Positions 1-62,384 are shown, counted from the first letter of the stretch. The stretch is 64,000 nucleotides of DNA from Candidatus Omnitrophota bacterium (GCA_043814965.1 JBDRJN010000006.1:7838-71837), one strand, 5' to 3'. The notes: a model not told the origin generated them from the sequence alone. Made by a program: numbers and translations.

Positions 1-5
1 AGGCC

Positions 6-15000: not shown

Positions 15001-18000
15001 ATGGCGCAGAGCTTGAGCTGTATCAAGAGAAATCTGTTATCATGAGTAACATGGTCAAAGGCCTTGGCCGTGAAAAGATAGCGGATCTTATAATAAAGAC
15101 CATAAATCCAAGTTTAAGTTATAAGCAATTAGCTGGTGACTTGACAGGAGTATATGACTCGGAATATGCGGGAGAAACCAAGCTCTCCAGGTTTGGTATA
15201 TGGGTCAGGAAACATAAGTTACTGACAGGCGCAATATTGCTATTAGGTCTAATAGCTTGCTCACCTTCTCTATATTATTTTGATACAGGAGTAAAATACA
15301 TCCATGACCGTATAGATGGAATCACAGATAAAGACATTGATACAGGAAAAGGATTTTTTGACTCATATGTAGCATGGAAAGACAGTACAGCCAGGATAGA
15401 TGATACTATGATGGAGATAGACAGCGCAATAAGGGCTTTAGGCCCATCCGCAGATAGATCAACTATAAACAACCTGAATGCCCAGAAACAAGAATTAGAA
15501 AGAATGAGAGGATTGGGGCTGAAGGATGCAAACAACAATGACATTTATTATCCTCATAATACAGGCATACCTACCAACACTACTGTAAAAAAGAATGCAA
15601 AAGGACACTGGGAATATCTGGTCAATGGAACACCAGAGCCGTTATCTAGGTATAATATGGCGATCGGTGATGCTCCTGATGATTCATATAAAGACAGATT
15701 CGACGTACTTAATGAGACTCCAAAGATCTTCTGGAGGTCCGGCAAGGGAGAACAGACACCTATAGACATGCTTGATTCAGCAAATGTCGGCACTATAAGG
15801 TTCTATAGGGCTCCTTTGGATACCATAGGTGGAACGCAGTTCTCAGACTTGCTTGAGCAAAATTACAAAGAAACAGGAATGAAGTATATTATTCCTTATG
15901 CAGCGGGTATTGATAAAAAGGGGAACACAGAAAAAGAAAGTAAAAAATTAAAAGGAGATTCATATACAAATATTCTAGAGGCAAGTAAAGCAGCTGATCA
16001 ATACAGTGATGGCGAAGCGCTCTTAAATTACCAGCTTGGCAATGAAGGCAGTTATCGCCTTGAAGGCCAGTCAAAATATGAGCCTTGGTATGATGATACC
16101 TGGGACTTATTCAAGTTTTTCACAGTGCATAATGCTATGGCGGGGGATATACTTGATCAGGAAAAAAGGATTTCAGAGGAGACTGGTAAATTCAGGCACC
16201 ATGAGATCGCAATATCACTGCCTGATATTAAAAGTCATTTTCAATGGGCAGCAGAGATCAACCAGGTCTTCCCATATCTAGTGGACAATGAAGCTGAGGG
16301 GAAGGCCCTTACTCTCAAGCATTACAAAGATAAAGTAAAAGGCCTAGGGGATAGATTTAAGGATATAAAAAATAATACAGAGCTCCCCAGGAAAGTCAAA
16401 GGTCTTGATAAGTTTATAAGTGATATGAAGGTAGCGGGATTAGTAGTAGAAGAATATAAAAATGGCAATGGAAAAGCAAAATACGCTGATTGGATAAAGA
16501 CACAGGATAAGAATGTTTTACAGAAAATATACACGTTACATAGATACCAGAGGACCCTTATAGACCCATACAATCCTTTGATAAAGAGCGCAAAGAAGGA
16601 CTTGATAGATATACAAAATGGCAAAGATAAAGATAAGGCCAGCCGCATGCAGAAAGTACTGGACGCTCTCTATGATAATTTGGAAGCAGAGCGCGCAAAA
16701 CTAGCAAATGTAAACAGCATACCTCAATTAGTAAATGGGCATTATGACGGCAGCTGGATAACAGCGATAAACAACAGCTTGATAAGGCCTCGTTATTTTA
16801 TAGATAATATGACCTATGACCAATTCAGCGATGGTATAGTCGATGAAGGCAAGAGCGTAGAAGTATTTGATTTTCGTTATAACATGAGAATACTTGGAGT
16901 CAACTCTGTACAGCGCGATAAGGCAGGTGTTGCGGCGCTATTTAACGAGACGCCTGATATGCCGGTGATATTGCTTGAAGCTGGGCAGCATAAGAATGCC
17001 ATAGATGTACTTGATCCTAATAGACAATTGGAACTAACAATACAGGTAATAGAAGCAGCAAAGAACAATATGCCTGGTAACGATAAAGGAACTGGAAAAT
17101 GTATAGGCGTATCTCCGTTCTATTTTGATGAATTGTGGAAAGCATTTTCAGAAGAAAACGAGTGGTTTTGTAAATTAGGCCTATTTAATTATGATAATCG
17201 CCGTAAGATGGTCCCAAAGACCGATAATACTATAAATAGGCTTTCCAGATTGTTCCCTGCTCCTAATGTACCTATAACTATAGGAGGGAATAAAGAGCTG
17301 AAAAGACGCGAAAATATGCTGGATCAATTGCTGTCCTCGACAAGCATCGAAGTAAAAGGCCCAGGCACATACAATATAAGCTGGATCAGCGATGGCAAGG
17401 GTGATTGGCAGAGGTTTATGGACAAAGAAGTAGATGATAATTATAAAGAATATCTATCCACTCTCCAGGTTACCCCGACACCTGAAGGAAACATACTCAA
17501 ACATGAAATACCGGATGAAAATATAGGGGCATACAAAGATAAGTATTATACATATCACAGGGATGCATTTATAGAGGGGAGAGGACATCTAAGGATATCC
17601 ACTGCTTATAAGGATAAACAAGGAAATCCAGTCGCTATGGATCAAGGTAGTGACAGGTCATATTTTGCTCCAGGGGGAGGGTATGTTCCTATATGCACCA
17701 GAGATCTGTCAGGAAGGCGCGGAAAGACCTTACTCATCGCTTTTCCAAGAATGGAAGGAAAACGCCTTGTTACGGATACAGTTATGGTACCAAACGTCAT
17801 AAAGACCTATTATGAAGCAGAGAAACCTGATTTTACGACAAATTCCAGATTTTCAGTGGTATATGTACAGAATTGGTTGAGCGAGAGTCAATCACAGCCG
17901 TTCATCTCAATAGATGTCTACAACAATAACGAAGACTTGATATTCCCGGCCTCTATCAGGACCATATATTCTGAATTTGAGGTTATGGCAGGCCAGGAAC

Positions 18001-21000
18001 TGGATAAGGCGATATATCTAAATGACAGATACGGCCGCAGGTATTGCGGAATAACATTCTATGACCGCGGACTCGTGACAGATGATTATACTACTGTTGT
18101 AGGAGAGAATGCTACTTATGAAAAGCAGGTCCATTATCAGGAGGAAGATGCAATAGCTCTCAGGGATGCCAGGCAGAAGATAGATTCTCTAACTACAGAA
18201 TACAGCAGAATAGATAGTCTTTTGAGTTCAGATAGCAATCCAAGTAATGTAGTTAGGTTAGATTTTAATAAAAATAAAGAGATCGCAGGAAAAATATCCA
18301 AAGCAGAGACATACAATAAGACTTTCAAGGATATATTGTTAAATCAGCTGTCAAATGACAATAAAGAGTTATTCAAAAATACAGAGAAAAAGATGATCGA
18401 GAATCCTGCTAAGATCAACAGCATAAATGCGCCAGAGGCCTTTAGTGATGAGGAGAAGGTATTGTTTAATGGCTATAGGTCAGGCCTAAGCAAGGTGTAT
18501 AACTATAAGAAAGGAATAGACACAAATAATAAAGAAATATCCGAATGGGCTGTAGAATATGAAGCTATGTCAAAAGATGAGTCCAGGCCGAAAAAGGTAA
18601 GAGGGCAAGCTGAATGGATCGTGTCTAAACTAAAAAGACTCGATACGCTTAAAGGAAATATCAATGACGCAAAACTGGAATTTGACAATATAAGAAAAGA
18701 AGCAGCGCGCAATGGAGATGTCTATATAACAGCTTATTCAGTCCTCGGCAAAGCAATATGGATCAGCGGTCCTGACGGCGTAGCGCATCTGGGGCTTGAC
18801 GGGGAATACAAGATACTCAAGTGGGTACCGATACTTACAGAGACTACTTTTAAGGATAATATGATACTTGATGCTACTGGTTTCTGGAACAGGAACGATA
18901 TATATGCCCCTTCCAAAGAAGAGATGATAAAGCTGTTCTATGGCGAAGACGCTGATCTTGATATGAATATTACTAAATGGATACCTACTCTTCCTGGCCT
19001 CGAGACTTTCCGGGATATAGATAACTTAGTAAATAAGCTTGAAGGCCTTGGTATGATAGACGCCTTGGATGCACAGGTTAGGATATTTAGTCCTGATTCA
19101 TTGCCAAAGGATATAGCAGATGACGAAGCCTCTTATAAAAAACTGGCTAAAAAGTATGACTCTATGAATGACCTGGTAGATAAAAAATATTTTACATGGG
19201 TCAAGAACGATGTTGAAAAAAGCGCAATCGTCAAAGTTGAAGAAAGCGCAATAGTCAGAGTAGCTTCTATAGACAAACAGACTGATATGTCTTTACGATA
19301 TGCTGCATTTGGAGATGCGTGCAAGGAAAAAGGAAACTATAAAAATGCCAACAAATATTATAATGACGCGTGGAATTTTATAAGGACAGCTAAACCAAAG
19401 ATAAAGGGATTGATCCCTTCAGAGCTTGATATAGATAAAGGTGTAGTCAGGGTAGGCGCAGAGACTTATGCTTATGATAATATTAAACTGCCCCTTACTT
19501 GCCTAGATCTCGTTGATGGGCGCCTTAAAGGCACTAATCAGAAGCATGCTTTGGGATATGCCAACGAATTGATCGGTATTATATTCTCCAGCGAAATGCA
19601 GGATCCTTTAGGAAGCGGAGGTATAAGAAAAGCTCAGAGTGTGGACATAGAGCATCTGGAAAGTTACCAGATGCTGACAGTAGATCAGGTATCCGCTTAT
19701 GCCTTGTATCGCAAGGCCTCTATTCTAAAACAGAAATTTAAGGATGACAAGGCCCTCCGTGTCGCAGTACCTGATGCATCCGGACTAGTAAAATGGCTGA
19801 AGAGAGGATATGACAAGAATAAAAATAGATTCTATCTAAGGCTTGAGTATGATCAGACTGACGAATCTTATAAGAGCTTTGATTTCCAGGACCAGAAAGA
19901 ATCTTTCGAGGCGCATCAAAAGATAGTATCGATGTTAGGCAAAGACGGCCTTATAGAGCTATTCAATGACCTGGGTCAGAATATAGATGCTGAAAAGGCA
20001 GCGGATGAGCTTATACAGACATATTTACCCAAAGATGTCATACAAGGTTCTAGTGTTATGGCGAATGTTTTAGGCAGAGAACCTTTATTCGCTTATTCTT
20101 TTGCAAAATGGAATAAGGCAGGCCAGGTCAAGATGCCGCGCATTGAACAAACCATTGCTAATAAAGTCGCAAAGTGGTTAATGGATCGATTTAACTCACC
20201 TGATACTGTAGAAAAGCGTAACATGTATAATGACGTAGTCAATAGGGGCATAAGCGGAGCTATTTGGGCCGGCCTTTTGGCTGCGTTCGCATTTGTCACT
20301 ACAGGAGGTAACAAGATAAAAGATGCTTATATCGCTAGAAGACTACTAAGGAAAAAAGCCCCATTTGAACCAGAGGTCATGGAAGTGGAAAATAGCGATA
20401 TTAAAAAAGACCTGCTGGATAATATAAATGATGCCGCGTTTACAAATGCAAGGACAGAATTTGATGATTGGGCCCAGAAGACCGATCTAAGAACCAGGCT
20501 TAAAAAAGAAATAGATAACATAGAAGATGAATATGCAAAGGGTAATGAGATAAAGGTAAACCTAAACTTTGGTATGGATGCATTCGAAAGTAAGGTAAAC
20601 CTAAGCTTTGGTATGGATGCGTTCGAAAGTAGAGATGCTCAATCCGCAAGGGCAATAGATAAAGAGATAAGAAATAAAATAGAAGAACTAAAGATAAAGC
20701 ACCACTTAAGCAGTGATCCTTATGGCATAGCAGGGCCTCAGAAGCATCCGCTCATGGAGTTCTACAGGCATTGCGCTAGCGAGTTAAATGAATACTACTC
20801 AGCATGGGACAACAAGAGAGTAAATTCTGCTTTGACCATATTATCCGGAAAACTGATGACAGAGGATTTTAAACTTACCAGGTCCGAGCTTGAAGGTATT
20901 AAAGAAGAAGTCAAAGATGAGACAGGCGAAGAATTAACGGATTATGAATATTTCCATATATTAAGGCCTTTGGCAGTAGAGGCTTTCTATACACCTTATA

Positions 21001-24000
21001 TTGTAAATTACTACAAGCAGATGGGAAGAAGTAAGCTGGATGCAAAGGATTGGAAGTATATCGTAGGCCCTATACTCAAGGATATAGAGAAGAACCTATT
21101 CTCAGATGTTATAAAACCAAGCGCTATCAGCGATGAATATACTCTAGCGCAGTCAAAATCAAAAGACGGACTTTATATGCTTGTAAACGGCAAAGAGCAT
21201 GAGGTAGATGGCAAATACTATCGCATGCCTCTCAGAGAATATGTATGGTCAAGGATAATGTATAGAGATGTCAAGGGATTGGGAGGCAGGTCTACATTTG
21301 TAAATTGGATAGTGCGCAGGATCTCTGATCAAGTAGACGGCAGGAAGACGATATATGAGGTAACTCCTAGGCCGGCAGGAGGCAGGATCAGAGGTATTCT
21401 ATTTACCATAGCTTCGAAATTAGTCAATGTCCCTATGATAGGCGCTTTGATAAGGAAAATACCTTCGCTTAATATCTCTGAAAAGGTAGATAGAAAGAAC
21501 GTAGTAGTAGATGACAGCCCAAAGAGCCCGGAAGAAATAAGGAGATACGTAGAAAGACAGACTTACTTCTGGATAAATGTATTGAGCGTGGGCCTTGCAA
21601 AACAGAAGAGATTAAGAGGAGCGAATCTTGCTAAGAAGATGAAACGAGAGATAGAGAAGATAGATAATAAGATCAAAAAACTTGAAAAAGAAAAGAACGA
21701 TCTATTATCCAAAGGCCTCAATAAAGATGATGGCAGAGTAGAGGCTCTTGATAAAAAGATAGCCGCATGGCAACAGTATAAGAAAGACAGGAAATTCCCA
21801 TCAGCTGCTAAAGACCAGGGCATAGGAAGAGAAAAAGAGTATTCGTTCAATAATGAAGAAGTGGATGATCTCTTCAAGTATTTCAATCCTACACAGCTTG
21901 ACATAGTGGTAGATGAGAGTTTCTTGGGATTCCTCAAAAATTACGGTATAGAAGGAGATTATGAAATAGGTTCTAAGATCACCCTGGAAGAGCTTATACC
22001 TATCTTTACAGAGAAGCTTGAAAAAATAGACAATGAACTAAAACTGGATATTGAGCGCAATGAAAGGATGGATATCAAAGATAAAGAGCTAAAGGCCTTG
22101 AATGAAGAGATATCTAAATTAGAGGAAGATAAAGATATTGAAAAAACACTAAAGGCCTTGGAGAGAACTATTGCTGAATCCAGTGAAGAACTGGAGGCTT
22201 TGGGTAAAGAGATATCCAAGTTAAAGGATGCTGGAGATGCTCAGGAAGAAGATATAGATGCCTTAGAGGAGAAAAAAGAAGCTCTCGAAGAAAATATCAA
22301 AAAAGATATAGGAGAATTAGAAAAAGGTAATAAAAAGTTAAATGCCATAAAAGAAGATAAAGGAATCAAAGCCTATAAGAAGGAAATAGATGATAAGCTG
22401 ATAATGTTAAAAGAGGACAGAAAAGAGGTAAGGTTAGAGATTTATGACCTGTCAATGTATAAAAAAGAAGATTTTGTAAATAATATAATCAAGTTTTTCG
22501 ACGTCCAGGAAAATATAAAAGACGCTGTTATAGAGAACGAGGTCTATGGCTATCTGATAGTCGCGCCAAGACAGGGTGTTCTGAACTTCTTCTTATTCTG
22601 GATAAGGGCCTTTCCTAAATTGTTTACCAGGGGAGGGCACAGAGCTCTCTTATCAGGATTGGATAAAGTAAAAAGAGACCTGTTAAGCCTCAAGCAGGAA
22701 TTAGCCAATGATAGAAAAGAAGGTAAAGTAAGAGAAGCTGAGATCAAGAAAAAGATCGAAAATAGGGAAGGTGACTTAAAAGAATTAAAGGCAAAACTTA
22801 AAGAAGAAAGAAAAGACAACTGGAAGAAAAATGCGTTCTGGGCTCTTGTTTTAATAACGCATTTGGGATTCAATTACTTGCTGTGGGTAGGTGGCGTCTA
22901 CGAGACAATACTTACTGTGGTTAGCCTAGGAGGGACATTCAGCCTTGATGCATTGGGTACTGCGATAGTCATGTCAACCGTACTAATAATATTCGGGGTA
23001 TTGCTGCTGCCTCCTATAATCAATTTCGGACAGTATATAGTGACATCAGTCACTTCTTTCCAGGAAAAGGATTCTGAGATAAGGACAGATATAGACCTAA
23101 AGGGCGAAGGGGTGCTTCCTTGGGAGAAGAATTCATTCGGCCTTTCAGTGACAGCAGGCATAGGCGCATTAATAGTTTCGCTGGCAGTATTTGGCGCTCC
23201 TATTTTAACAGCAGCCGGGATAGCAGCAGCCGCGTCTTTAGTAGTGACCTATGGTGTAGACCTTATAAGGTCTATTTTCTTTAAAGACACAAAAGAACCC
23301 GCTTTGGTCCGTATTTACAATAAACACGCGGGCGCTGCTACGGAAGTAAAGGCTGATATAATCAAGGTCCACAATATTGCTGTGCTTTCGATGGCAAATG
23401 ACGATAGATATGAGATCACGGATGAAGAAGCGCAAAAATTACTGATAAAGGATATCACTTTGGAAGACCTTATAAGCCATGAAAAAACAGAAGATCTGAT
23501 CAAGGCCCTGGAAGAGGAGTTTAAGGACGGATCAGATCCGGTCAGGAATTTTACTGCTTCTTTAAAGGATCTTAAGCCGGGAGAAGACAAGAAGGATATT
23601 TTTAAGAAACTCTCTGGATCCGGGATCAATGAAGAAGAAAAGGCCAGATTAAATAAGATCAGGTATGATTTTATAATAGACAGGATATTCGAACAGTTTA
23701 GGGATAATGGCAGGACAATAGGAAAAGGCCTGGCAGGCTTGAAGTCAGAAGAAGCAAAGATATCCTATAAAGATGTTATGAACAGGTACTTGATGAAGAA
23801 TCCGCCTAAGTTGGTAAACAAATTCGATGATATGCCTTCGATCACGGTTTATGTAAGCAGGCTATTCGAGAAATACAGGTTTAAGTATGTTGAGATAGTA
23901 AAAAGACAGATCCGCGAAATAGAAACTCCGAAGAAAAAGCTGAAAATGGCTCTAGAAGGAAAACCTCTCGAACAGAGGAAACAGCAGAGAAATAAGCTCC

Positions 24001-27000
24001 ATTTTCATAAAGTAAATTACCGCGATAGAGGAGATATAGATTTCTATAAAGAAGGCGCGAAAGAGATGTTCAGCAGAGAGCGAATAGCGTCATATAAATT
24101 TATAGATGAGCTAAGAGAAGAGTTCAAAGATCCTGAGACTAGGTACAAAGAGGCGCTGGAAAAAGCTACAAATGATTTTATAGAAAATATAAAAGAAGGG
24201 GTTTATTACGACAATAAGAAGGAGTATATAACAGCATTAGAGAATATGTATAGGCATTTAGATCCTATGTCTTATGGAGTATCTAAGAATAATAGCGTAG
24301 AACTAAGATTATTAACAGATAATCTTGTTGTTAGACTTAAAAAACTATCTTCTTCAAAGGTTTCTTACGATTCTTATCTTGCTGTAAATATAGGAGATAT
24401 TTCCGCGGCAGAGATGGAATTAAAGGACAGAGATAAGAACTATATAATAAACATTATTAATTCTAATATGGATATCTTTGTGGAAAAATTCAACGAAAAA
24501 TTCGAAGATGCTCAACAAAAATATATAGTTGCTTTAGAGAATATATATAAAGGAAAAGGCCTTGGAGGGCCTGAATCCTATGGTGTATCAAAACAAGACA
24601 GCCTTAGATTAAAGAAGGCCACGGATGACTTTATAGAAAAATTAGAGAAGGCTTCTTCTTCAGTAACGACCTGGTATCCGGATATTGCTGCTAATATAAG
24701 GGATAGTTTTGTCAATGGGCTAGGGAATATGCAAGGCATGAATGATCCTAATGCACAGAATTATATTAATGCTTTAATAGAGTTCTATACATATGGTAAA
24801 CTGCAGGATCCTAAGGCTTATGGTGTATCAGAGGCAAATGCCAAGCTTATAAATGAAAAAGTAGCTCAATTCGAGGCAAGTGAAACTACGACTGCAGAGA
24901 GGACATCGGTAAGATGGGATAATTTTATTAAGAAATTAAGGAAAGAGTTTAAGAATACTGAAGATGGAAGCAAGAGGTTTATCAATGAATTAGTACAATT
25001 ACAGGCAATGGATGAGCTGGCAGATCCTACATATTATGGCGTAATACCTGAGAATTCCGCAAAGATGAAGAAGATGATAGAGGACTTTGTAAATAACAAA
25101 GAAAGCTGTTTATGGAGGACTCTCAGAGAGATGCAGAATATAAGGGATGCAATGTACGGTTTTATAGAGAATCTATATCCTAAGTTAGATGGTGAATCGG
25201 AGTTCAGTTACCAGTCAAGGATCAACGCGCTTACGGATGAAAAGGTCCAGCTGTATCTAGTTAATTTTGTATTAGCGCATTTTGGAGATAAGAAAAAAGA
25301 GATCATAGACAAATTGTCCAAAGAGGCCGCGTTGCTGGAAGATTATGGTATCACAGAGGAAGACCTGGAAAATGCCAGGAATATGACACCGCTTGAATTC
25401 AAAGATTTTGCAACACAATTCAATAATGAAAGTATATTTACTACTAGAGGCATAAAAGAAGGTAATAAAGATAAAAAACCTGAGGATGTACAAAAAGATA
25501 CTATCAAGAAATTATTAGAGCACAAGGATATATTAAATAAATATGGAGTTTCCGAGGAAGAAATAAATAATGCCAGCGGATTGGAGCCTTATCGCTCTAC
25601 TGGAGCTGATTTCGAAGATTTTATAAGGGGTTTAAAGACAAAATCACCGGAACTTAGGGAATTCATGCGTCAATTTGATAATAAAAAAGGATTCATAAAA
25701 AAAGAAAAGTTCCAAGAAGTGGAGGATTATCTAAACGATATAATAGAGATCAGTGAATATGGCAAAGATCATAACTGGGATATGTCATATTTTGAATCCA
25801 AGAGCATCTTCGCTGAGTCCAGTAAATATGACAGCGCCGCGGCAGCGATGTATGAGGTAACCAAAGATCTTGCATTTTTCTTTGATCTTGACTGTGAATT
25901 AAAGAGGGAACAGGCGGAGAATCTTTTAGCAGTGCTTCCTATGTTCAATGACCCTCAATTAGGGCTTCTGCTTACCCAGATATATATGTATACAGCCCGT
26001 ACTTCCAAGGAGACAGAGATAACTGACCTTGCTGAGGGAGGTTTTACAGGAGTGATACACGCATTTACAAAGAAGTTAGGAAAATCAGCATTCTATGGTA
26101 AAGGGATAATGAGGGTCGAATTTATAAGGAGGTTCCTGCACTTACAAGCTGACAATGTAATGGAAGATTTTACAGGCGCTATCGCATTTATCCTGGCAGG
26201 TATCAAGACAGACTATACGAAAGTTGTCAAAATGGGAGCAGGTTTTATCACTACCATGAAGCAGTATATAACAGCCGCTGGTAAATACTGCTCTGATTCT
26301 ACTGAGACGCTTCTTTCCAAGATTGGCCGTAGGTTCTGGCTGGCAAAGTCGCTTATGTTCAGCGATAAGGCAACTATGATAAACCAGCTTTCATTTTACT
26401 GGAAAAAGCTTTTAGTCTTTGTAGTAAATATGGGATTTATGGGCGCATACTGGGTAAGAGGCCTTAACCCATACGAGCCAGTATCCGGATACAGCCAGTA
26501 TTTTAGGGGCGCATTGCTTGTTTTAGGATTTGTATGGGGAGAGATGATAAATGTGATCGGTTTTAGGTCTAAACAAGAAAGATATGGGTTCTGGAAAGCC
26601 CTTGGATGGATGGGGACAAGATTTCCAAGATCGTTCTTATTCTATGTAAAGGCATTGACCATGCCTTACCTTGTCAAGAGCATAGCAGCAGCGAAATCAC
26701 AGACATTTTTTGGCGTGACAGGTACTGATGATAACCTGGCTAGAATGACTTTTAAAGAACTCTTTAATAGAGAGACCATTACTTATCGGATCGCGGCTAT
26801 ATATACAGCGCTCTGGGCCACCAGGCCGTTCGGCGTATTTAGATATGCGACAGCAGCGCTTATCTTAGGACTTATATTTGCAACGTTTTATGCGTCGTTC
26901 CATTTTAACGCACCGTGGAATACTGGCTGGAACCACGCAAGGAACGGCAATTGGAAGACCAGAAAAGGCGGCATAGCAGAACTAGCTAATTTACCAGTAG

Positions 27001-30000
27001 TAAACAATATAATCAATTGGGGTATGAGGACAGCTGATAAGAGATTGGGGAATTTTGTTATAAATGTAGGTATTAACCTTACCTGGTCTGTTGCTGCACT
27101 TACTTGGGCAGGCGCTTTGATAATAAAGGATTCTATCGTATCTTTATGGGAGGCATATAAAGGGATCGTCGGAGCAATCTTCTTTACTTATCCAAAGCGC
27201 GTTAAGGAGTCTGTGGTTGGGTTAAAACTGGTGGCTATTGATGCTGCAAATAATGCCCGCGCTTTAAGATATTCTTCTAAAGTAACAAAGATAGCCGCAA
27301 GTATCGTAGCATTACTTATACCAGATACTTTAACAGCAGGAATCGGAGATGTTGTATCATCAAGCCCTATAGAGGCTGTTTTGGGTGTATTGGGGCTGGG
27401 CGCTATCGCAGCAGGCATTACTTATATGAAGAATAAGTTTAATGGAGAAAGTGAAAAGGAAAGCCCTAGCATTTTAATGGAAGACGAGTCTTCCGGAATT
27501 ACAATAGAACTTGATAATAATATCTCAAAAGATGGTATAAAGGACCTGCAAAGATTAGCTCTTAGTATATCAGATGATTTTGATGAAGAGACATTTAAGG
27601 AGAATGGCGGTTATGTATTTGGCAGAGTAGAAAAAGACGGTCAATATGTTGTAACGGACCTCGTGCCATTTAAGGAATTTGAAGCAACAGATATAAGAGT
27701 AGACCCCACAGATAGCGATATTAAACAAGCCTTACTGGATAATGCAAGTGATGGTGTAAAGCTATTAGGTACTTATCATAATCATTGGATAAATAGGCAA
27801 CTTAGCAATCAAAGACCCGGGGCTTCTCCAGATGATTTTAAGAGCAATATTCTCGAGAGAGCAAAAGATCCTAATATAGGCGGAGAACATCTAGTAGCTG
27901 TAGAGGAGATAAATTTTGTATTAGAACCTGAGTTTGAAACTGAGCCTACGATCGAAGACCTCATGCAGGGCAATATTAAAGTAAGAGTAGATGAAGTCAA
28001 AATATATCCTTATAAGGTTAAGGACGGCAATTGGATCAGCTTAGATCCAGTTGAGTTCCAGAACAGCATCTTTAAAGTAGACGACTTAGAGCGCAATAAG
28101 GAGACTCAAACATTCACTGAGATCGCTCCCAGGGGAAGCCCTGAGATAGTCGTAGCAAGCGTAACGGAGGATATTCAAAGAAAAACCCAAAGGGTTTTTC
28201 TTTGGCCACTTCTGAAAACGTTTACAAAAAGGCTGACTCTTACAAAAACACTTCTATATATACTATTACCTCTCAATATATTCCTGGAAGTATATTCGCA
28301 GGACTTAAAAGACCATAATAATATCGCATCAAAACAGGACATAGAAGTAGTAAAAGAGGACTCTAAGAGCGATGTTGCCAGAAAGATCAATAAGGCTGTA
28401 GAAGGCCTATTATCTCTGAGAGACCCGATCACTAATCTGCCGCCAAGCCATTATGGGCATAAGGGCTTGGAGAAGACATATTATCTCTATGACCTGGCGC
28501 ACAACGCAATAGAGCTCAAGGTATCAGGAAAACAAAAAGAAGCAGAGATAATGCTTGATTATATTGCAAGGCGCATCGATATGCCGCTTGAAGAAGTCAA
28601 AAAGCATGCTGACAAGAACGGTGTATGGGGCATGATCCAGATATTCAAGCATCCTTTCGGGGAAGACCGTTTTGTAAAAGGCATAATAAATGCTATCAAT
28701 ATAGCGTCACGCGACAAGCAGGGAAAAGGCGAAGAATTCTGGTCAACTCCAGGGCCTATCGCATGGACCATCTTGGCAATGATACAGGTAAATCCTCAAA
28801 AATATACTAATCAGGCAGAACAACTGGCGGATGTATTGATAGCTATGCAGGATGAAGAAGGCGGCATAATAGACGGAACCAGGAACCTGGGGAATATAAA
28901 CACAGAACCTCATATGGATGGATATAGCGGATTCAGGATCATTATAGACGCATATAGGGCATTTGATAACCTATATAAGAAGACAAATGATGATAGATAT
29001 AAGACTGCAAGAGACAAGGCATGGAGCTGGTTTGAGAACGAGGCGCTTGATAAGGAAAGAGCTGTTATATTGCAGGGCCTTACATTGGGAGGAAATCCAA
29101 GTTATGTACATGCTACGGATGTCTATACATGGCCTATAGCGATGGCAACAGATAAATTGGACCCGAAATTGATATTAAAGTTGATAGAGACAGTAGAAAA
29201 AAGAAGCCTTGTTGATATTACTTATAAGAGGTCAGACGGTAAAAAAATAAATGTTATCCTGCCTGATTTTACAGACCCAACTGATGGCATGATAAAAGGC
29301 ATGAGGCATGGTTATCATCCTATGGGTTCTCCCGAATGGGCCGGCGGGTTTATTATTATGTATTATGAAGCAGCCTGTAGGCTTTGGAAAGAAGGATATA
29401 AGGACGAGGCAATAGAGCTTAAGGCAAAAGGCAGGGCAATGCTCAGTTACCTATGGATGACAGGCGTAGAAAAAGATGGTTTGATCACAGGGCCATATGC
29501 TACTTCTAAATGGCTTGAAGTAGGCCATGGCTGGTTTACCCCTACAAGCGATATAAGCACTGCATGGGACTGGACTATACTCCCAGCCCTTGAATATAAT
29601 CCATTTATTCTTGATGGAGGCTCATTAAAAGAAAGGCTTTCGGATATCCCAGATCTGTCATCAGAAAAAGCATCCGAGCTTTTAAGGAACGAGGTAAGAC
29701 ACCCTGCTTATGAAGAAAGCAGTATTAAAGTAGATGCGACTGAGGATGCAAGCTGGATATATCAGCCAGGCTGGTTCATGGAGAATAAGGTATGGCCTGG
29801 TTACAAGAACGGAGAAAGAGGCAATAAAGACGGGTTCAGGCAGGCCATAAGGTTCGGAGAAATAGTGTTGGATAAGTGGCTTTCAGATGCTATAAACGAA
29901 CAAAAGGCAAAGGAAAAAGAAGTAGGAGGGCTTATTGATTATCAATGGGGAAGTATTGATGAGGAAACAGAAGAGGCTGTCTGGAAATACCCTCTTCTCA

Positions 30001-33000
30001 ATGAGGTAGGCGCAGCCTGCTGGGCAATGGCTGCTTCTTATGTACAGTTGGGCGATGAAAAGAGCGCTAAAAAATATATAAAGATACTCATAAAAGATAT
30101 TCCTTATCATCAGATATATGAAGCGAGCGGGCCAGGTTTCTGGAATGCTATCAAATCATGGCACATGATGCCTAATAGTATAGATAGAGAAATGGCCGGG
30201 ATCTATAGAGAAGCCGCAAAAGAAGAAAACATACCTATAAGTATAGTACCTGAAAAAGGCCTTTCCAGCATAAATATAGCTCCTTCAAAGGAAAAGGCTC
30301 AAGGCGCAGGCAGTATAGACAAGATAGAGTCAAAGTCCAGGATAGAAACTATTGCCAATGGTATCAGCGGTTCATGGTCGGGATACGGGTCTAACTCTTC
30401 GTGGGCGGATGGGACATTTGACCTTAAGGATGCAAGGTCCATACGCATAACATTTCCTAAAAACCAGGCAGGCATAAATATATTTGTGAGATTATTAAAA
30501 AATAGGAGCATGGCCCCGAGCGATATAGGCAGAAGTCCAAAGATATACACAATACCTGCCGATGGAGTGGTCGAGATACCTATATCAGATTTTCCTGTCT
30601 CGACAAAAGACCTTGGTAACATAGAGCAGATCTCAGTGCATTCAGGTTCTAATGCCTGGAATAATCCTTTAAAGCAGAGCGAAGGCAGGAAGGCTATGTT
30701 CCAGAAGATAGAGATCATTATAGCTTCAAAAGACAAAGGATATATGCCTATAGAGGGAAAAGATGGTTTTGGCCATGGTTTTCCGATAGAGCTCTTTGGA
30801 TTAGGCCTAAGCGCCTTAGTAGGCATGGTAATCAATAAAAAGAATGACGGAGATACGATATACGAAGATGAAGACATGAAGGTCTCCTCTGAGAGAAGAG
30901 GAAGGCTGTATATCAGCAGTAAATCCAGGAAGATAGACATGGTCTATGATCCTAAGAGGAGTAAAGATAGGCTAAAGATCAGAGGCGCTTACGATGAAAA
31001 CAGCATGGAAGAATTAAGAAAAGATATAACAACTACCATAAAGAAAAAGTCACTTAAACTGCCCTATGGTTTTATGCAGGATATCGGGATAAAGAGTATA
31101 TTGAGCCCGGAAAGAGAACGTCCGTATAAGATAAGGGATAAGTTCAAACAGCTGATAGCATTCTATATGACAGGAAAACTTACAAAGCTAAGTGATGGAT
31201 TTGAGATATATCAAGGTTATTCTATGTTTGTAAGCGGCATAGCATTGCCTCATAGGTTTTCGGACAGTGAGCTGGATTTTCTTATAAAGTCAGTAAACAG
31301 GGGATATGTCTCGGAATATGACCTAAAGAGAAGATTCGGAAATAAAGAAAATTTTAAAGCTATAAAAGAAAAGATGATCTCTTTTACGAATGCGTTATTA
31401 GCTGTAAAGGAACTCAAGAAGAGAATAAAAGGTTCTTATAGTAAAAGCTCTATAGATATGGCTTTTAATGAGCTTTATACAGAGCTTAATAGTGTAAGTG
31501 ATTATAAGATAGACGAACTAGAGAAGAGATGGAAGAGGGTGATGGAAGAGACAGGTATATATGTACCTGAAAGATATAAGGAAAAAGATGATGCCAAAGA
31601 TAAATCTTTTTCAAAGAATAAATTATACTCATCCCTTATAATTCCTTTCCTAATGGTCATCCCGGGACTATCTACAAATGCAAATACCCCTATAGATACA
31701 AAATTACAATACAATCATCATTCCAATACGCAATACGATGTCTACAGAGAATTAGAGATGTTATCTTGGAACCTTTTTGAAGATAAAAATATAGATAGAC
31801 TAATAGAAATAGGCGAACCAGCAATTCCTTATTTACTTAAGGCCTTGCAGAGCGATAAATTATATAGCTCTCAACGTGAGGAGATTATAAAACGCCTTGG
31901 AGAAATAGGCGGTATGGAGTCTATTTCACAGCTGATCAATTTATTAAAGACTAAAGAATACCTTGTGCCTGAGCTTTCCGCAAAAGCTCTTATTAAGATA
32001 GCTGAAAGAAACTCTATAGATATGGCTAATCTTTATGGAGATAAAATAACAAGTCTTATATTAGCTAATTTGGAAAAATGGGATGAGCTAGCTAGCAAGA
32101 TGGGCCCCAGAGCAGTGGCTGGTTTAATGGAATATATTGATTATTATAAGATGTCCGAAAATAGCATAGAAACCTTGTCTAAAATACAGACTCCAGAAGC
32201 GATCTCTTATCTTGTAGACAATCTTTCTAGTGCAGCTAATGACAGAAAGATCATGATAATCAAGACTTTTGATAAAACAAAGGCAAATACTCCTCAGGTA
32301 ATTGAGGCATTAACAAAAGAGTTAAAAAATATAGATCTAAAGGTACGGATAGAGTCAAGTATTGCGCTTTATAATTTAGGAAATAATAGAGGATTACTCA
32401 CTCTGATAAAAGATATAAATAGTAATTTTGAAACTATATCTAATGATACAACTTTGTTGAGAAGGATGCCTTTACCTATTAAAAAACAACTTGCTTCTAG
32501 ATTTGCAAATTCCTTAGGCAAAGGCAAGTTTGATTTTTATCATTCTGGTGCCATCTGGCAGGAGTCATCTAATATTTCAGGTTTAGTTGCGATTGGAGAT
32601 GCAGCTATACCTTATCTAGTACCATTGTTAGATAGTCCTATTGCGCAGAAGAGAAAAAATGCAGTTATGGCATTAAGCAGCATAGGGATAAAAAATAAAG
32701 ATATTGCAGATAAGATAAATTCATTATTATTAAATGACCCTGATTATGAAGTCTGGCTTCAGTCTGGAAAGGCTTTGGTTAAAACTGCACGCATATACTT
32801 ACCGAGTTGGGAAAAAGATTTTTCAATGAATAAATTAATAGGACTTTTTAGTCAAATGGACTATCCGGAGCGTAAGTATGGAAAAGAAAATATCTTACAT
32901 TCTATTATTCAATGTTCAAATTTAGAAGGTCCTATAGGGGTATACGGAGATTTTGATTATCCTGAAGAAGCATCAGCTTTATTACATAAAATCAAAGAAC

Positions 33001-36000
33001 TAGGAGAACCAGCAATAAACTTTTTAATAGACGCTTTACCTGTGTATTTTTATCAAGGTTCTTATAGTGATAATTATTATCCTGCAGAACGATTATTACG
33101 ATTTATATTGCATGGGAATTCTCTGAGATTGTACAAGGCGTTACGCGAACCGCTTTATGAGAATACCCAGAGAGCAATGTCTCTTCGCGTGAAAAGGGAT
33201 CTAATGATAATAGATATACTGAAACAATCAGGAGCTGATGGTTTTTCAGGTTTTAAACTTAATGTTGGTAATTATAATGACCTATTCGATGATAACCCAA
33301 AGATCAGAAATGAAGCATATAAAATCCTTAATAAGGAAGGGTCTGCTAGAGAGTTAGTAAGGATCAGTAGGTTATTTAATAAATTAAGAGACGAAGAGGC
33401 AGCAATAAAGGACCAGGAAATAATAAATAATACAAAGGAAGGAAAACTAAATGCCTGGCGTATACGAGAAGCTATCAATAGGATCGGTAAAAATAACGCA
33501 ATTAGTTATTTAATGACAGGATTCAGTAAAGTTAAGACTATTGAATATGCGAGATCGATCACAGAGTTGGATACTGTTAAAGGAATGAATAGTTTAAGCC
33601 AACTTTTAGACAGTGATAAGTTTAATACTGGTTTTGAAGCCTCGAAGACATTATTAGAAATATCCAAAAAAGATTCTTTAGACCTTACTTCTTTTTTAAG
33701 TAAAGACAGGATGGAGAAGTTAAATACTTATAAACTGGTAAATGGTTATGATTGGTATAAGAAATTAGATAGCCTTGGTCAACCTACGATCTCTAACCTA
33801 AAGAAGATGTTGCAGTTAGATGTAGATACAGAAAACAGAATTAAGATCCTCATTGCTTTAATAAATAGAGGGGACAAGGAATTATTGCCTGACGTATCTG
33901 ATATTATAGAGAACCATGAAAATAGTGATATAAGGTATAGAGCAGCTAATATACTTGGAGATACAAGTAGTTATTGGGCTGAAGATGTTCTTTCGAATAG
34001 TTTAAAAAAAGAGAAAGATGTTAGGGTCAGGAGATCATTAATAGAATCTCTAGGTACGCTGAAATCTAAAAAAGCGTTTAGTTACTTAATAGAGCTAGTC
34101 AAAAAAGAAAATGAAGATATAGATATAAGAAAAGCAGCTATTAAAGCTGTTTCAGATATAGGCTACAAACCCCCTGAATTAGTAGATATCTTAATAAATA
34201 AACTAAGTGATTATTCACTTAAAGAAGATATTTTTGAAGCTATTGGAGCGTTAAAGATTCAAGAGGCAGTCCCGCATTTAATAGATATGATAGAAAAAGA
34301 GATGGATAAGGACAGCCATAATTTTGAATTAATCAATAAAGCGGCAAAGCCATTAGGAGATATAGGGAATAAAGATGCCCTGCCTATATTAATTGACCTA
34401 TTGGATATAGAGAAGAACGGAGTCTTAGAGACAGCAGTTGAGGCAATAGCAAAAATTGGCCCACCGGAAGACATGATAGATGACCTTATAGATCTATTTG
34501 AATTTAGAGAAATGAACGAAGATAAAAAAAGCCCTTACGATCCTTCATCCTATTACAGTACAACATTATGGGGGAATATTAGAAACGCCTTAGTAAAGAT
34601 AGGAAAACCTGCGCTTCCTTCATTGTTAGAGGCTTTTGCAGATGAGGATATACATGAAGAGAGAGGGTATTTTAGTGGGGATAGGGTCAGTGATTATATC
34701 AAACAAGCTGTTTCCGAGATCGAGAATGTTTCTTTAGACACAGATAGGAAGCTGGTTGACTATCTAAAATCAAAATTAAGATCTACTGATTCTGATATAA
34801 GAGATTATGCCTCAGATGTCTTAGAATTGCCTTATTTAGCTAGGATAGTGAGAGAAGATGAATATAATGAGACGCTTGATTCTATGGAGTCAAAGAAGAT
34901 CAGTGATCATGATGGTGCTATTGATGACTTGATCGATATTTTAAAGTTTAAAGAAGGCAGTAATGCGCTTCATGAAAGAGCAGTAAAACTACTTGTTAAA
35001 ATAGGAAAATCCGCAATACCTGAACTATTCGAGCTTCTTACGGATGAAGACGCAGTAGATAGTAGATATGTCAAAGAAGCTTTTTCTAAGATCGAGAACA
35101 TCTCTTTAGAGACTGATGAAGAATTAACCAGCTACTTAGAATCAAAGCTTAGATCCGATAACTCTAAAATCGTAAAAAATGTCTTAAAGGTACTTGATAA
35201 GATCTCACCTGACTCAAAAGTTGCAGCTAAATTCAAAAAAGAACGCACTGATCTATTCCTGAAATGGCTTGGTATCGCAGTTATCGCAGGCGCAGTATTA
35301 ACTGTACTAACTGCTGCATGGAGGGCGTGGCGCCAGGTAATGAAGGAACGCGCTGACAATGATCCTGCAGTAGCCTCTAATACTAAAAAGTCAATATTCA
35401 GCAGGATTTATTCTAAGATCAAGGATAAATTTACATTGTTTACGCTTATAAGTACTTTTTTAGTCATACCTAATCTATCTACAGGCATTTTTGCGCAGAT
35501 GCCGCAAGGGTGGAAACCGATATCTGAATATAATTATGATGAAGAAAGGCGAGTATATAGGAATAGAGCTTACTTAAAGATGCTTAATTATATTTCAGAA
35601 AATGGGATAAAAGAAAAAACCCATGAAGAATTAAGCCGCTTGGTTTATTTAGCAGACTCTTGTGTCTTGGAAAGAGAGAATGAAGAGAATACAAGAAAAT
35701 TAACAAGACATGGAGACCTTGCAGTTGTTGCTTTAGTGGAAGCTGTCAGATATTTACCTCTTCCATGGAGTGAAGATGGAAGGGCGGTATATTGGCAGAA
35801 GCGGTATATAAAAGAGGCTATTAAAAAAATAGGTAGTCGTTCAATACCTGCATTAGTATACGAAGTGAATGATGCTGATACTGCTATATATTTATTTGCG
35901 TTGGGTGTGCTTGGTGAATTAAAAAATGCTGGATCAGCTGTCGAACTTGCAAAATTAATAAATTCAGATAAATTCGAGGATGGAACTATAAAGATGCAGG

Positions 36001-39000
36001 TATGGGACGAACGCATTGGAATGTATATGGATAAGAAAAAGACAAAATTTGAAGTTATTTTAGAAACAATAGTAAAGATAAATAACAAAAATACAGTGCC
36101 GTACTTGTCAAAATTACTTACAGAAACAGTGGAATATGATGATATCTTTGAAGAAACGTATTCTTTTTATTCTATATATTCAGAGGAAAGAGAAAAGGTT
36201 GTATGTGCTATTGGTCAAATAGGAGGGGAGAAAGCTATATCTATTTTGGATAATGTATTAAAAAAGGATAAAGACCCATTAGTACGAATAAAAGCCATAC
36301 AAATGCTGGTAGATATTGGTAAACCTGCTGCTTCAAGCGTAATCAAGGCATTAAAGCATAAAGATAACAAGGTAAAATCTATAGCTATAGAGGCGATTGC
36401 TAAGACAAAAAATATAGAAGCAGTAGATAATTTGATACATATATTAATAGCTGAAGAGGATTGGCATATTAAGGAAATCGCAGGCCAGGCGCTTATTGAT
36501 ATAAGCAAAGAACATTCTTTAGACCTTGTGGAGCATGCTAAGAAAGAAGAAAAAGAATTATTAGATTTATATTTATTTATTATTAAAGGCGAATGGGAGA
36601 ATGTTGTTAAAATTGGCAGGCCAGCAATACCAGTCTTAGCTGAGCTATTAAAGAGCAAAGATACAGGGATATATAAGTCTGATCCTATAACTGTTCTCGG
36701 AGATATAGGCGATCCAAAGGTAACGCCTATCTTGCTTGATTTTATAGGTGAAGACGTGGTAGGGCCTGCAGCTCTTGAAGCTTTTATGAAAATAGGAAAA
36801 TCAGCTATTCCATACCTCATCAATACTTTAGAGAACAGCAAAGATTATTTATTAAAAGGAAAGTCCATTTATATACTTGGGAAATTAGGACATGATAATA
36901 AAGAAGTGATGAATATTTTAATTAACAATCTTAAGGGAGAAAAATATATAAAGCAGACTATAATTGCGCTTGGAGAGGCAAGGCCGCAAGAAGCCCTTTC
37001 TTATTTGATAGATATTGCGGAAGACGAAGATGATGCAAATATTTTAACTTTAACCGCAGAAGCCTTGGGAAAAATAGGAGACAAAAAGGCATTGCCTGCT
37101 TTACTTGAGTTATTGGAAACAGATGATTATAATGTCCTCTCTTATACTATGGATGCTATTGAAAAAATAGGCGTAACTAAAGATGCGATTGATGGATTGA
37201 TAAATGTATTAAAATTTAAAGAAGGAAATTACGGGATTTTTGAACAGGCTGAAAGGCTTCTTATAAAGATAGGGAAACCAGCGCTTCCATATTTGATCCA
37301 GGCAGGAGAAGATAAGGAGATAATAGCACCTAGTTATATTGAAAGAGCTGTAACCAGCATAGAAAATAATCCAGAAGAGATAATTGGCTATCTAGAATCT
37401 CAGCTTAAATCAGATGACAATAAAATGGTAAGAAATACCTTAAAGGCGCTTAAGATAATCTCACCTGACTCTAAAGCCGCGGCTAAATTCAAAAAAGAAC
37501 GCACCAATATATTCCTAAAATGGCTGGGTATAGCAGTTATCGCAGGCGCAATACTTACTGTACTTACTGCTGCATGGAGGGCGTGGCGCCAGGTTATAAA
37601 GGAGAACAAGATCAGCGTATTTATTGGAGGAGCGCTATTAACAGTTTTTTACTATTACTTATCTAATGATATGTCATTACCCATGGTCTCCCAGGCCTTA
37701 TTCTTAGGAGGAATTGTTTTAAAGAAAGATGAGTTCAAAGAATTAGACGCCTTATTAGAGTCAAAAGTGAAAAATAGCATGGTGTCTTTACATAGGAAGA
37801 TAGTCAGTGATTCAAGGAATAAAATACTTGGAGAAGACAAGAGAGAGCTTTATGAATTCAGTCTCAGGGACATAAAGAAATGGGCAGAGTTCTTTAATAA
37901 ATATAAAAGAGACTTAGGAGAGGCGGGAGCATTTATTAAAGGAGCGTATTATATATATTATGACAGGATGGAAAATGATCTTGATAGAGGTAGAGTATCT
38001 GGCCATATAGAAGATACGATATCAGGCTTGTTCCCGGAAGAAGAACTCCAGAAAAAGAGCTTAACGGACCTAGTAGATAATATAGGAAAACAAGATAAAA
38101 ATGTCTCCCAGGTAGAAGATATAAGATTGACATATCTTGAGGAAAAAGACGATACTTACAAGATATTAGACATTGAACTCGATATAAATCATAGAGATGA
38201 AGATAAGACACATGTGCCTGATAGAAAATCTTCAGAGCTTGTGCCTATTTCCCACACCATAGAAGACCTTGAAAAGATAGCCCAGGCAACAGCTCTTAAA
38301 GAGCCGGTTCTGCTTGTAGGAGAGACTGGTGTGGGGAAGACTTCTCTAGTCAGGTATCTTGCATCAGTTACGAATAATAATTTCAGGAGGTTCAATCTCA
38401 ACGGCCAGACTGATAAGACAGAGTTTATAGGAGGTTTTAAACCAAAAAATGAAGAAGGCAATACTGGATTTAAATGGAAAGACGGCATATTGATAGAGGC
38501 GATGAAGAAAGGACATTGGCTGCTTTTGGATGAGATAAATCTTGCTGAGCCTGAGATAGTGGAGCGCATAAGATATTTACTGGATAACAATGGATATCTT
38601 GTCGTAAGCGAACACGACGGAGAAAAATATATAAGCGCGGAAGAATATGACCAAAAGGTAATGGAACTTGTAAAAGGATACGAGGCTCAAGGCATAGAAA
38701 AGGCCAGAGAAGAGTTGATAAAGGACGCTATAGGCGAACTAAAATCAGGGCCTAGTCCTATATTCAGGATCCACCCTAATTTCAGGCTTTTTGCCACAAT
38801 GAACCCTCCCGAATACGAGGGCAGGAAGGATATGTCGCCCGCGCTTATGAACAAATTCAGGGTCAAATGGATAAAAGACCTTACGGAAAACGATATAAGG
38901 ACAATAATCCAGAAAAAATACAGATTCGATAAGGTTATAACTGATTCAATAATGGAGTTCCATAAAGCGCTCAAGAAACTTAACGGAAAAGACGGCTTGC

Positions 39001-55631: not shown

Positions 55632-55666
55632 TACAATAATTACATTAAGTTAAGGAGGTGAATAAG

Positions 55667-57370: not shown

Positions 57371-57396
57371 CGGGTTACGGGTTACGGGGTACGGGT
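57371..57396 (+). repeat. G-tract repeat 'CGGGTTACGGGTTACGGGGTACGGGT' (G3N4G3N4G4N3G3: canonical G-quadruplex-forming pattern) filling the whole SBP-permease intergenic gap
   Basis: Read directly; 69% GC in an otherwise AT-rich context, abutting the ATG at 57397. Confidence 0.8.
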
Positions 57397-58287: not shown

Positions 58288-58365
58288 ATAGTCATGATAT
58301 CAAAAATCAAAGATTAAAATGCAAAATTATAGATTAAAATTCAAAAATAAAAAAGAGAGAAATTA

Positions 58366-59214: not shown

Positions 59215-59216
59215 CG

Positions 59217-61613: not shown

Positions 61614-61699
61614 TGGAAGGAGGTGTGTTCTAAATATCAAAAATTAAATATAAAAATCAAAAATGAGAAAAGAAACATGAACCAGAAAGGAGTGGTAGT

Positions 61700-62377: not shown

Positions 62378-62384
62378 TTTAAAA

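Follow-up and report, generated by a model that had tools for sequence, protein, structure and literature searches.

We analyzed a 64,000-nucleotide (nt) stretch of DNA from a Candidatus Omnitrophota bacterium (GCA_043814965.1, JBDRJN010000006.1:7838-71837; hereafter, the window, with positions counted from its first nucleotide), nearly all of which is occupied by a single giant open reading frame (ORF). The giant ORF encodes at least 18,527 amino acids (aa), and nt 3i..3i+2 correspond to residue i; seven ordinary genes follow downstream on the same strand. Within the giant protein, a hydrophobic block at 26.0-27.45 kb is probably the post-catalytic membrane domain of one very divergent Fks1/GT48-like module with a cellulose-synthase fold (aa ~7600-9150). 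In the proposed layout, four transmembrane (TM) helices come first, followed by a split cytosolic glycosyltransferase (GT) domain of the GT-A type and then by about eight TM helices, among which lie interface helices and a segment resembling a gating loop. The features of the ORF and the proposed module are as follows; iE is the independent E value of a match to a family profile described below, and KD denotes Kyte-Doolittle hydropathy.

3..55586, plus strand: giant ORF, one frame without a stop codon, open at the 5' end of the window
22788..27482, plus strand: whole proposed Fks1/GT48-like processive synthase module, aa ~7596-9160, with a TM bundle on each side of a split cytosolic GT-A domain
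22833..23273, plus strand: TM bundle before the GT domain, four helices at aa 7611-7629, 7651-7673, 7712-7731, and 7737-7757, with KD peaks up to 2.63
23685..23930, plus strand: start of the GT domain, aa 7895-7976, matched by the profile of the family's N-terminal half (N-half; iE 1.9e-8 and 4.2e-7)
24912..25262, plus strand: GT48-type N-half motifs 'RWDNFIKKL' and 'FVNNKESCLWRTLREMQNIRDAMYGFIENLYP', aa 8304-8420, both within a collinear family-profile match, the second with an Fks1 counterpart
25812..26372, plus strand: catalytic C-terminal half (C-half) of the GT domain, aa 8604-8790, aligned to Fks1 with hmmalign; AlphaFold predicted local distance difference test (pLDDT) 70-91, with an alpha/beta pattern
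26409..26564, plus strand: equivalents of Fks1 TM7 and TM8, aa 8803-8821 and 8836-8854, by profile alignment to Fks1 residues 1283-1382
26565..26780, plus strand: cytosolic interface helices and gating-loop equivalent 'FFGVTGT', aa 8855-8926, with 12 Lys+Arg in 72 aa
26781..26900, plus strand: equivalents of Fks1 TM9 and TM10, aa 8927-8941 and 8947-8966 (Fks1 R1455 = R8929, N1490 = N8969)
27060..27425, plus strand: tail helices in two pairs, a tentative hairpin (aa 9020-9041 and 9047-9064) and a hairpin with loop 'DVVSSSP' and Lys/Arg-rich flanks (aa 9097-9115 and 9123-9141)

Searches of Pfam and PDB sequences with the giant protein in pieces of 5,000 and 1,000 aa returned no significant match within aa 1-10,000. 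Pfam domains are confined to the C-terminal 8,500 aa, where they comprise HEAT repeats, six AAA_5 domains, VWA, HD_4, proline dehydrogenase (Pro_dh), and GNAT. No ORF longer than 107 aa competes with the module on either strand (nt 22.8-27.5 kb), and Rfam gave no match within the window. The coding strand of the giant gene is purine-rich throughout (window positions 1-56000), with a GC skew of +0.14 to +0.30 and an AT skew of ~+0.2. The AT skew falls to 0.067 over the membrane block (26-28 kb), as expected from U-rich hydrophobic codons, and to 0.03-0.13 in the ordinary downstream genes.

Membrane block and topology

An original prediction, made from the nucleotide sequence, had described several hydrophobic clusters in the giant protein; a KD scan with a 19-residue window reproduced all of them. 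The block at aa 8790-9145 has a grand average of hydropathy of +0.35, compared with -0.475 for the whole protein, and it ranks 11th by hydrophobicity among 18,172 windows of equal length. Hydropathy over 356 aa is highest in the segment beginning at aa 8784 (0.384), a level that none of 200 shuffles reached (maximum 0.240). Six KD peaks of ≥1.3 fall within 360 aa of the block, whereas shuffles gave at most five. Trp is enriched (3.7% vs 1.2%), as are Ala, Gly, and Phe, whereas the block is poor in Asp, Glu, and Lys. The sequence at 26.0-27.45 kb does represent a true multi-pass membrane domain. The range originally assigned to it (25990-27450) does cover this domain, but its first ~137 aa (nt 25990-26400) belong to the soluble catalytic half of the GT domain. 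The count of at least eight helices fits our model, in which four helices are backed by homology and by AlphaFold and the other four by hydropathy and flank charge.

Across the whole protein, individual hydrophobic 19-mers occurred at about the frequency expected by chance (19 vs 12.8 expected at KD ≥1.6; 34 vs 35.3 expected at KD ≥1.3); therefore, isolated single "helices" carry no weight on their own, and only clusters do. Such isolated 19-mers lie at aa 5073, 6749, 7132, 10259, and 10858. The single helices proposed earlier were recovered by the scan, but the isolated ones among them are no commoner than chance, and helix counts published for giants of this kind should be read with that background in mind.

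Based on the distribution of Lys and Arg, the loops of a model with 4 + 8 helices obey the positive-inside rule, a check suggested in the original prediction: inside loops contain 48 Lys+Arg in 264 aa (18%), whereas outside loops contain 2 in 57 aa (3.5%). The outside loops are all short (5-21 aa), and both module ends are cytosolic. In the bundle before the GT domain, the outer flanks are rich in Lys/Arg (7/15 and 4/18), and the outside loops contain neither residue. The GT domain lies in a ~1,040-aa cytosolic stretch between the two TM bundles. Because the N-half profile matches are collinear (see below), the clusters at 22.8-23.3 kb and 26.0-27.45 kb represent the membrane halves of one module, and the topology that had appeared unclear largely resolves.

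The clusters farther downstream have even numbers of helices. The cluster at 40.85-41.4 kb comprises four helices between AAA2 and AAA3 of an AAA+ ring, the cluster at 50.8-50.96 kb is a two-helix hairpin between HD_4 and Pro_dh, and a duplicated unit contributes the two strong single helices at 35.27 and 37.53 kb, which would cross the membrane an even number of times whether they form a pair or two hairpins. Given these even counts and the Lys/Arg-rich outer flanks, the cofactor-dependent domains can all stay cytosolic without huge external loops. At least one arrangement thus keeps all nucleotide- or cofactor-dependent domains cytosolic, and the protein need not be threaded in a way that places its ATPases outside the cell, the outcome that had been named as counting against membrane insertion. 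The module thereby removes much of the topology puzzle left by both published surveys of Omnitrophota giants.

Relatives, fold, and putative catalytic residues

Using an exhaustive HMMER (phmmer) scan over 1.84 billion cluster representatives, we identified 19 relatives of the block, with a best E value of 1.5e-98, followed by 5.5e-29, and then 1e-11 and weaker. These include two proteins, P0004 (E = 4.5e-11) and P0007 (E = 2.3e-9), that serve below as intermediates; the stretch in common is aa ~8604-8975. All 19 are fragments of, or pieces inside, very long proteins, and their named sources are mostly Omnitrophota metagenome-assembled genomes (MAGs). The closest relative, a 582-aa fragment binned as Desantisbacteria, aligned with 45% identity. 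Partner domains found with the module in its relatives are TPR, PHP, APH, and HEAT. A word-indexed protein search found nothing with the block, and with the family alignment it returned only two ordinary cellulose-synthase-like proteins; the word index evidently misses relatives seen by the exhaustive search. Two genome-contig scans and one metagenome-contig scan yielded no close relative. One relative, P0003, carries the exact D-A-N motif of Fks1, and its annotation names a Candidatus Njordarchaeales (Asgard) MAG as the source; because its contig is only 2.9 kb, the binning is doubtful and the Asgard assignment unreliable.

The family alignment shows a series of motifs in the order K, 20 aa, DxD, FYGKG, DDxVSED, and PxxKWxxGSxE, followed by conserved hydrophobic helices. 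A family profile built from the window copy and its 19 relatives was searched against all PDB sequences. The Fks1 match (E = 3.6e-18) pairs profile positions 4-360 with Fks1 residues 1085-1493 and thus spans the catalytic C-half and continues through TM7-TM10. Fks2 followed (E = 3.6e-17), then BcsA over the catalytic half only (E = 5.7e-14), and the weaker matches were to Escherichia coli BcsA and plant CesA, with nothing unrelated. Against the Pfam family Glucan_synthase (PF02364), P0007 scored 90 bits over profile positions 5-503 of 819 and P0004 scored 47 bits, both above the gathering threshold of 37.2 bits. Of the family's 20 C-half segments, six match Glucan_synthase and 11 match Glyco_trans_2_3, the latter weakly. 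P0007 alone aligns to Fks1 residues 796-1273, an interval that takes in the GT48-specific N-half. Enzymes of family GT2 lack the N-terminal half seen in Fks1.

In the giant protein, which contains a single copy of the module by family-profile search, the profile matches are collinear: aa 7603-7669 (weak), 7899-7974 (iE 4.2e-7), 8304-8673 (iE 1e-29), and 8608-9027 (iE 6.5e-131, against a profile that includes the window's own sequence). The first of these, the weak one, pairs the bundle before the GT domain with the N-terminal helices of the family. The GT48-specific N-half (EAxRRI..., the beta-1 strand with the E851 equivalent, '..EW..', and 'QTLYRTxxG..Y..A') is present in the collinear matches at aa 7899-7974 and 8304-8420. 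At the start of the GT domain, 'EEAKISYKDVMNRYL...MPSITVYVSRLFEKY' corresponds to 'EAERRISFFAQSL...MPTFTVLTPHYSE' of Fks1, which includes the Fks1 stretch MPTFTVLTPHYSE851. Another relative, P0001, matches aa 8296-8420 (iE 6.7e-35), and the motif 'CLWRTLREMQNIRDAMYGFIENLYP', within the match at aa 8304-8673, also has an Fks1 counterpart and is followed by the K...DxD region.

Alignment of the C-half to Fks1 places K8608 at K1082, with the same 20-residue spacing to the Asp in both proteins, and D8628-L-D8630 at D1102-A-N1104; 'FYGKG' is also present. E8721-D8722 correspond to E1221-D1222 and K8761 to K1261, and E8768 falls in the region of interface helix 2. Conservation of these columns in the family is high (D8628, 15/15; E8721 and D8722, 19/19; K8761, 17/19; E8768, 18/19), and the third position of the DxD motif varies (D in seven sequences, H in four, N in two, and other residues in two). 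Of the GT2 signature, the window copy has DxD and ED, and 'AGKYC' takes the place of the absent QxxRW (family consensus 'PxxKW'). In Fks1, K1261 lies in interface helix 2 and is essential in yeast (PMC12715860 and 10.1101/2023.03.19.532754, from which the roles of Fks1 residues are taken).

The membrane helices that follow share further features with Fks1. The TM7 equivalent has a conserved 'NP(Y/F)' at its outer end (N8822, 13/18), and the TM8 equivalent contains a conserved polar pair within the helix, E/Q8847 and N8850 ('(E/Q)A(I/V)N'; 14/18 for each position). TM8 of Fks1 is the helix that gates the glucan path. At the gating loop, the family has 'KFxxTxK', Fks1 has 'YISTGR', and BcsA has FxVTxK; the window copy has Thr for the Lys. 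The TM10 equivalent ends in 'FHFNA', which corresponds to Fks1 'FVFNP' with N1490, and a Trp-rich cytosolic loop lies between it and the tail helices. The fold common to Fks1, BcsA, and CesA extends from Gly-615 to Asn-1490 of Fks1 (10.1101/2023.03.19.532754).

AlphaFold run on the block as a single sequence was uninformative (pLDDT 35). With a 20-sequence alignment, AlphaFold gave a pLDDT of 70-91 for aa 8609-8969 and <50 for the tail. Predicted helices H197-229 and H243-272 match the TM7 and TM8 equivalents, and H336-350 and H358-378 match those of TM9 and TM10. Foldseek identified 46 PDB matches at E ≤1e-3, and the best 50 listed were all processive membrane polysaccharide synthases. BcsA ranked first (E = 3.7e-7 to 1e-5; TM-score 0.43-0.46 over ~390 columns), Fks1 and Fks2 matched at about 1e-5, and the list also contained hyaluronan synthases, chitin synthases, plant CesA, and a cyclic glucan synthase. 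These neighbors have the arrangement that defines the cellulose-synthase fold, with a GT-A domain packed on a TM channel via interface helices; no SecY-like or other protein-channel fold appeared among the best 50 listed. The structure prediction proposed earlier for this region therefore places its conserved part among membrane glycan synthases. We consider it highly probable that the module is homologous to Fks1/BcsA-like synthases and shares their fold.

Proposed activity and competing explanations

Several results weigh against assignment of the window copy to an Fks1/GT48-like synthase. The copy itself has no Pfam match even at E ≤1, PF02364 and Glyco_trans_2_3 included, and phmmer found no match to it in PDB. 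A profile of its own subfamily (window, P0001, and P0002) recovered only BcsA, marginally (E = 0.08), and not Fks1; the link between the window copy and Fks1 is thus transitive, via intermediate sequences. Pairwise identity to Fks1 is 14.5% (hmmalign to the family profile), and the GT domain is interrupted by two inserts, at aa ~7977-8303 (~330 aa) and ~8421-8589 (~170 aa). Where Fks1 has the DAN motif, the copy has DxD, and its residues differ from the family consensus at the gating loop (K8908->T) and at W8762->Y, H8738->Y, and P8758->A. The confident AlphaFold model is limited to aa 8609-8969, such that the N-half of the GT domain lies outside it, and the tail helices (AlphaFold pLDDT <50) show no sequence conservation and were placed by hydropathy and flank charge only. 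The assignment of the window copy rests on significant links to the intermediates, conserved motifs, and fold.

By analogy with Fks1 and BcsA, the cytosolic GT domain would bind a nucleoside diphosphate-sugar via K8608 and D8628-x-D8630, and E8721-D8722 would catalyze transfer to the growing chain. The chain would then be pushed through a pore whose lining comes from helices before and after the GT domain, among them the TM8 equivalent and its E/Q...N pair. This pore would open on the periplasmic side, and the module ends and the neighboring parts of the giant would remain in the cytosol. We lean towards a catalytically active module; a beta-glucan product, possibly beta-1,3, is a far more tentative suggestion. 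The channel-like unit imagined in the original prediction fits this reading in part: the block very probably lines a channel, but the channel would belong to a processive polysaccharide synthase and be supplied by the cytosolic GT domain of that synthase.

An active module would mean that a giant multi-enzyme "factory" in these ultra-small, reportedly predatory bacteria extrudes a polymer of the beta-glucan type, suggesting that at least some giants build cell-surface polysaccharide and do not only degrade it. In addition, 1,550 aa of complete "dark matter" gain a concrete, testable function.

Among the alternatives, the one that survives best is a degenerate synthase, a pseudo-enzyme of Fks1/BcsA-like descent that now serves only as a membrane anchor or scaffold holding the giant at the inner membrane. 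We regard this as rather unlikely. The divergence of the window copy, too great for detection by Pfam or directly in PDB, is what a pseudo-enzyme might show, as are the loss of the gating-loop Lys and of several consensus positions and the splitting of the GT domain by large inserts. Moreover, the other even-numbered helix bundles of the giant look like plain anchors, and Omnitrophota giants in general are very rich in TM helices (10.64898/2026.06.07.730766). However, the nearly invariant residues are all kept (G8699, E8721, D8722, G8733, E8768, K8789, D8628, K8761, and K8608), as is the polar E...N pair in the TM8 equivalent, and such retention is not expected of a mere anchor.

It is very improbable that the block forms a channel of another kind, generic or protein-conducting, through which the giant polypeptide is threaded or exported with the help of an adjacent SecA-like ATPase. 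Divergent SecA_DEAD domains do occur beside TM regions in many Omnitrophota giants (10.1101/2023.11.21.568195), and the N-terminus of the protein lies outside the window. Nevertheless, no SecA Pfam match was found anywhere in the 18,527 aa. Walker A motifs inside ATPase domains occur only in the AAA+ ring (aa 12773, 13933, 14670, and 15014), and the pattern matches at aa 5611 and 12260 fall outside any ATPase domain. The fold search gave glycan synthases only among the listed matches and no protein channels, and relatives of the module carry TPR, PHP, APH, and HEAT partners rather than SecA. The SecA-like motor originally placed next to the block was therefore not detected in the window, whose only ATPases form a midasin-like AAA+ ring 10 kb downstream.

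It is scarcely credible that the runs are instead hydrophobic cores buried in a soluble all-alpha domain. In favor of this reading, the KD scores of the block reach only 1.25-1.76, its summed Hessa-scale values range from +0.7 to +7, and 19-mers of this kind arise by chance about 13 times in a protein this long. Against it, cluster-level hydrophobicity exceeds that of every shuffle, four helices align with the experimentally resolved TM7-TM10 of Fks1, Lys/Arg asymmetry is strong, and the structural neighbors are all integral membrane enzymes.

Neighboring features and comparison with known systems

Outside the proposed synthase module, the following features of the giant protein and of the downstream genes were annotated.

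aa ~12,580-15,150, plus strand: midasin/dynein-type ring of six AAA_5 domains (Pfam)
aa 15,758-15,890, plus strand: VWA domain (Pfam)
55658..56002, plus strand: stand-alone PilZ-domain gene (Pfam PF07238, E = 5.3e-9, 36.8 bits), 72 bp after the giant ORF
56045..63662, plus strand: sugar ATP-binding cassette (ABC) importer (binding protein and two permeases), two secreted GH158-like glycosidases, and a 225-aa lipoprotein
nt 59265-61613 and 62448-63662, plus strand: the two GH158-like secreted glycosidases, whose best solved relatives are GH158 beta(1,3)-glucanases

The ring and the VWA domain belong to a complete midasin/Rea1-like unit (window 37700-47700, aa ~12,578-15,890) with an MDN1-type lid, six AAA_5 domains, and a C-terminal VWA/MIDAS-like domain. 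The four hydrophobic helices (aa 13624-13789) of a ~510-aa insert between AAA2 and AAA3 would anchor the ring in the membrane. Upstream of this unit, targeted BLAST revealed a duplication (window 34857-35348 and 37122-37604; aa 11619-11782 and 12374-12534) with 57% identity over 167 aa (E = 2e-52), although a self-BLAST of the whole giant protein had returned no match. Both copies end in a near-identical strong TM helix, 'FLKWLGIAVIAGA(V/I)LTVLTAAW', and the HEAT-repeat region between them would be periplasmic if each copy makes a single pass.

Deep in the ORF (window ~15207-15260, aa 5069-5086), the sequence 'RKHKLLTGAILLLGLIAC' has the textbook form of a lipoprotein signal, with a positive n-region, a hydrophobic core, and an L-I-A-C lipobox. 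The segment is a possible processing site of the giant or a possible internal start; its hydropathy, taken alone, does not exceed the chance level. A weakly hydrophobic cluster at aa 1646-1951 lies within the dark first 10,000 aa, and exhaustive search followed by profile building may resolve it too. Directly after the membrane block (window ~27600-27870, aa ~9205-9290), motifs resembling those of a JAMM/MPN metalloprotease are present ('GRVEKDG...GTYHNHW...GASPDDF'); we did not retain a protease at this position, as the support consisted of the motifs, with Prok-JAB at E = 0.23 in Pfam and no PDB match.

Downstream of the giant ORF, the PilZ gene has intact 'RRKFKR' (RxxxR) and 'DVSFNG' (DxSxxG) motifs and is of the cyclic di-GMP receptor type. 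It occupies the same position in four related loci, and in a fifth (L006) it is fused to a ROK kinase instead. The glycosidases match PDB entries 9ORO (E = 2.2e-15) and 6PAL (E = 2.3e-11 and 3.8e-6), and GH158 enzymes are beta(1,3)-glucanases (PMC13195107). The product of nt 59265-61613 shares 100% identity with a Candidatus Omnitrophota MAG protein. The cluster of PilZ, sugar ABC importer, two GH158-like genes, and ROK is conserved across Omnitrophota (loci L001, L002, L004, L005, and L006). In four of the five genomes where it is visible, the window included, the gene upstream of the cluster on the same strand is a giant (5,959, 41,888, 45,376 [in the complete genome CP070837.1], and at least 18,527 aa), and in one related locus no giant gene precedes the cluster. 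The C-termini of these upstream giants have no detectable homology to the window giant or to one another, such that the position is kept and the sequence is not. We had considered a bcs-like operon in which the synthase acts with the PilZ and GH158-like genes, an idea weakened by the occurrence of the same cluster behind unrelated giants and once behind none. The cluster is most simply explained as serving beta-glucan uptake, and only its position connects it to the synthase module.

In length, origin, TM helices, and the combination of enzymatic Pfam domains with HEAT repeats, the window protein belongs with the Omnitrophota giants ("Archaeovorins," inner-membrane-anchored multi-enzyme giants). 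Like them, it exceeds 10,000 aa, comes from an Omnitrophota MAG, and has many TM helices amid HEAT repeats and AAA_5, GNAT, HD, and sugar-metabolism domains, which makes naive localization ambiguous. GT1, GT5, starch-synthase, and SecA_DEAD domains have been reported in such giants (10.1101/2023.11.21.568195; 10.64898/2026.06.07.730766), whereas this window contains no SecA_DEAD, and 94% of long Omnitrophota proteins have TM helices or a signal peptide (10.64898/2026.06.07.730766). The texts of these two papers make no mention of a glucan-synthase, GT48, or cellulose-synthase-like module, and a full-text literature search for PF02364/GT48 returned eukaryotic studies only. Membrane-threaded Omnitrophota giants of ambiguous topology have thus already been described, whereas an Fks1-like module in them appears not to have been described previously.

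GT48 enzymes are the targets of echinocandin antifungals, and to our knowledge the family is essentially eukaryotic. It is conceivable, if doubtful, that Omnitrophota and neighboring uncultured lineages hold an unrecognized prokaryotic branch of the GT48 lineage that occurs only as a module within giant membrane-anchored proteins. If so, the family would be a candidate sister or source lineage of the fungal and plant GT48 synthases, and a prokaryotic branch with DxD rather than DAN would bear on the origin of GT48 from GT2-type synthases.

Among characterized enzymes, the cyclic beta-1,2-glucan synthase Cgs (PDB 8RF9; Foldseek rank 50) is also a large bacterial membrane protein with a GT domain between TM helices and further enzymatic domains in the chain. 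However, Cgs belongs to another GT family, is far smaller, and makes a cyclic product, and the likeness holds at the level of fold only. BcsA (GT2; PDB 4HG6 and 4P00) shares with the module DxD and ED, a gating-loop-like FxVTx segment, and a channel formed by helices flanking the GT domain. In contrast to BcsA, the module has 'xGKY' (family 'xxKW') for QxxRW, lacks a fused PilZ domain and a BcsB partner, and has a GT48-type N-half in its GT domain, and the sequence match to BcsA is limited to the catalytic C-half.

Compared with Fks1, the module has D-L-D in place of the metal-independent D-A-N, about four helices before the GT domain rather than six, and two large inserts within that domain, and it sits in a bacterial protein of >18,500 aa; no AC domain, Rho1-binding features, or extracellular Cys pairs were detected in it. 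The two nevertheless share the order of TM helices, GT-A domain, and TM helices, the GT48-type N-half motifs, equivalents of K1082, D1102, E1221-D1222, and K1261, and a TM7-TM10 region that is collinear up to 'FNP.'

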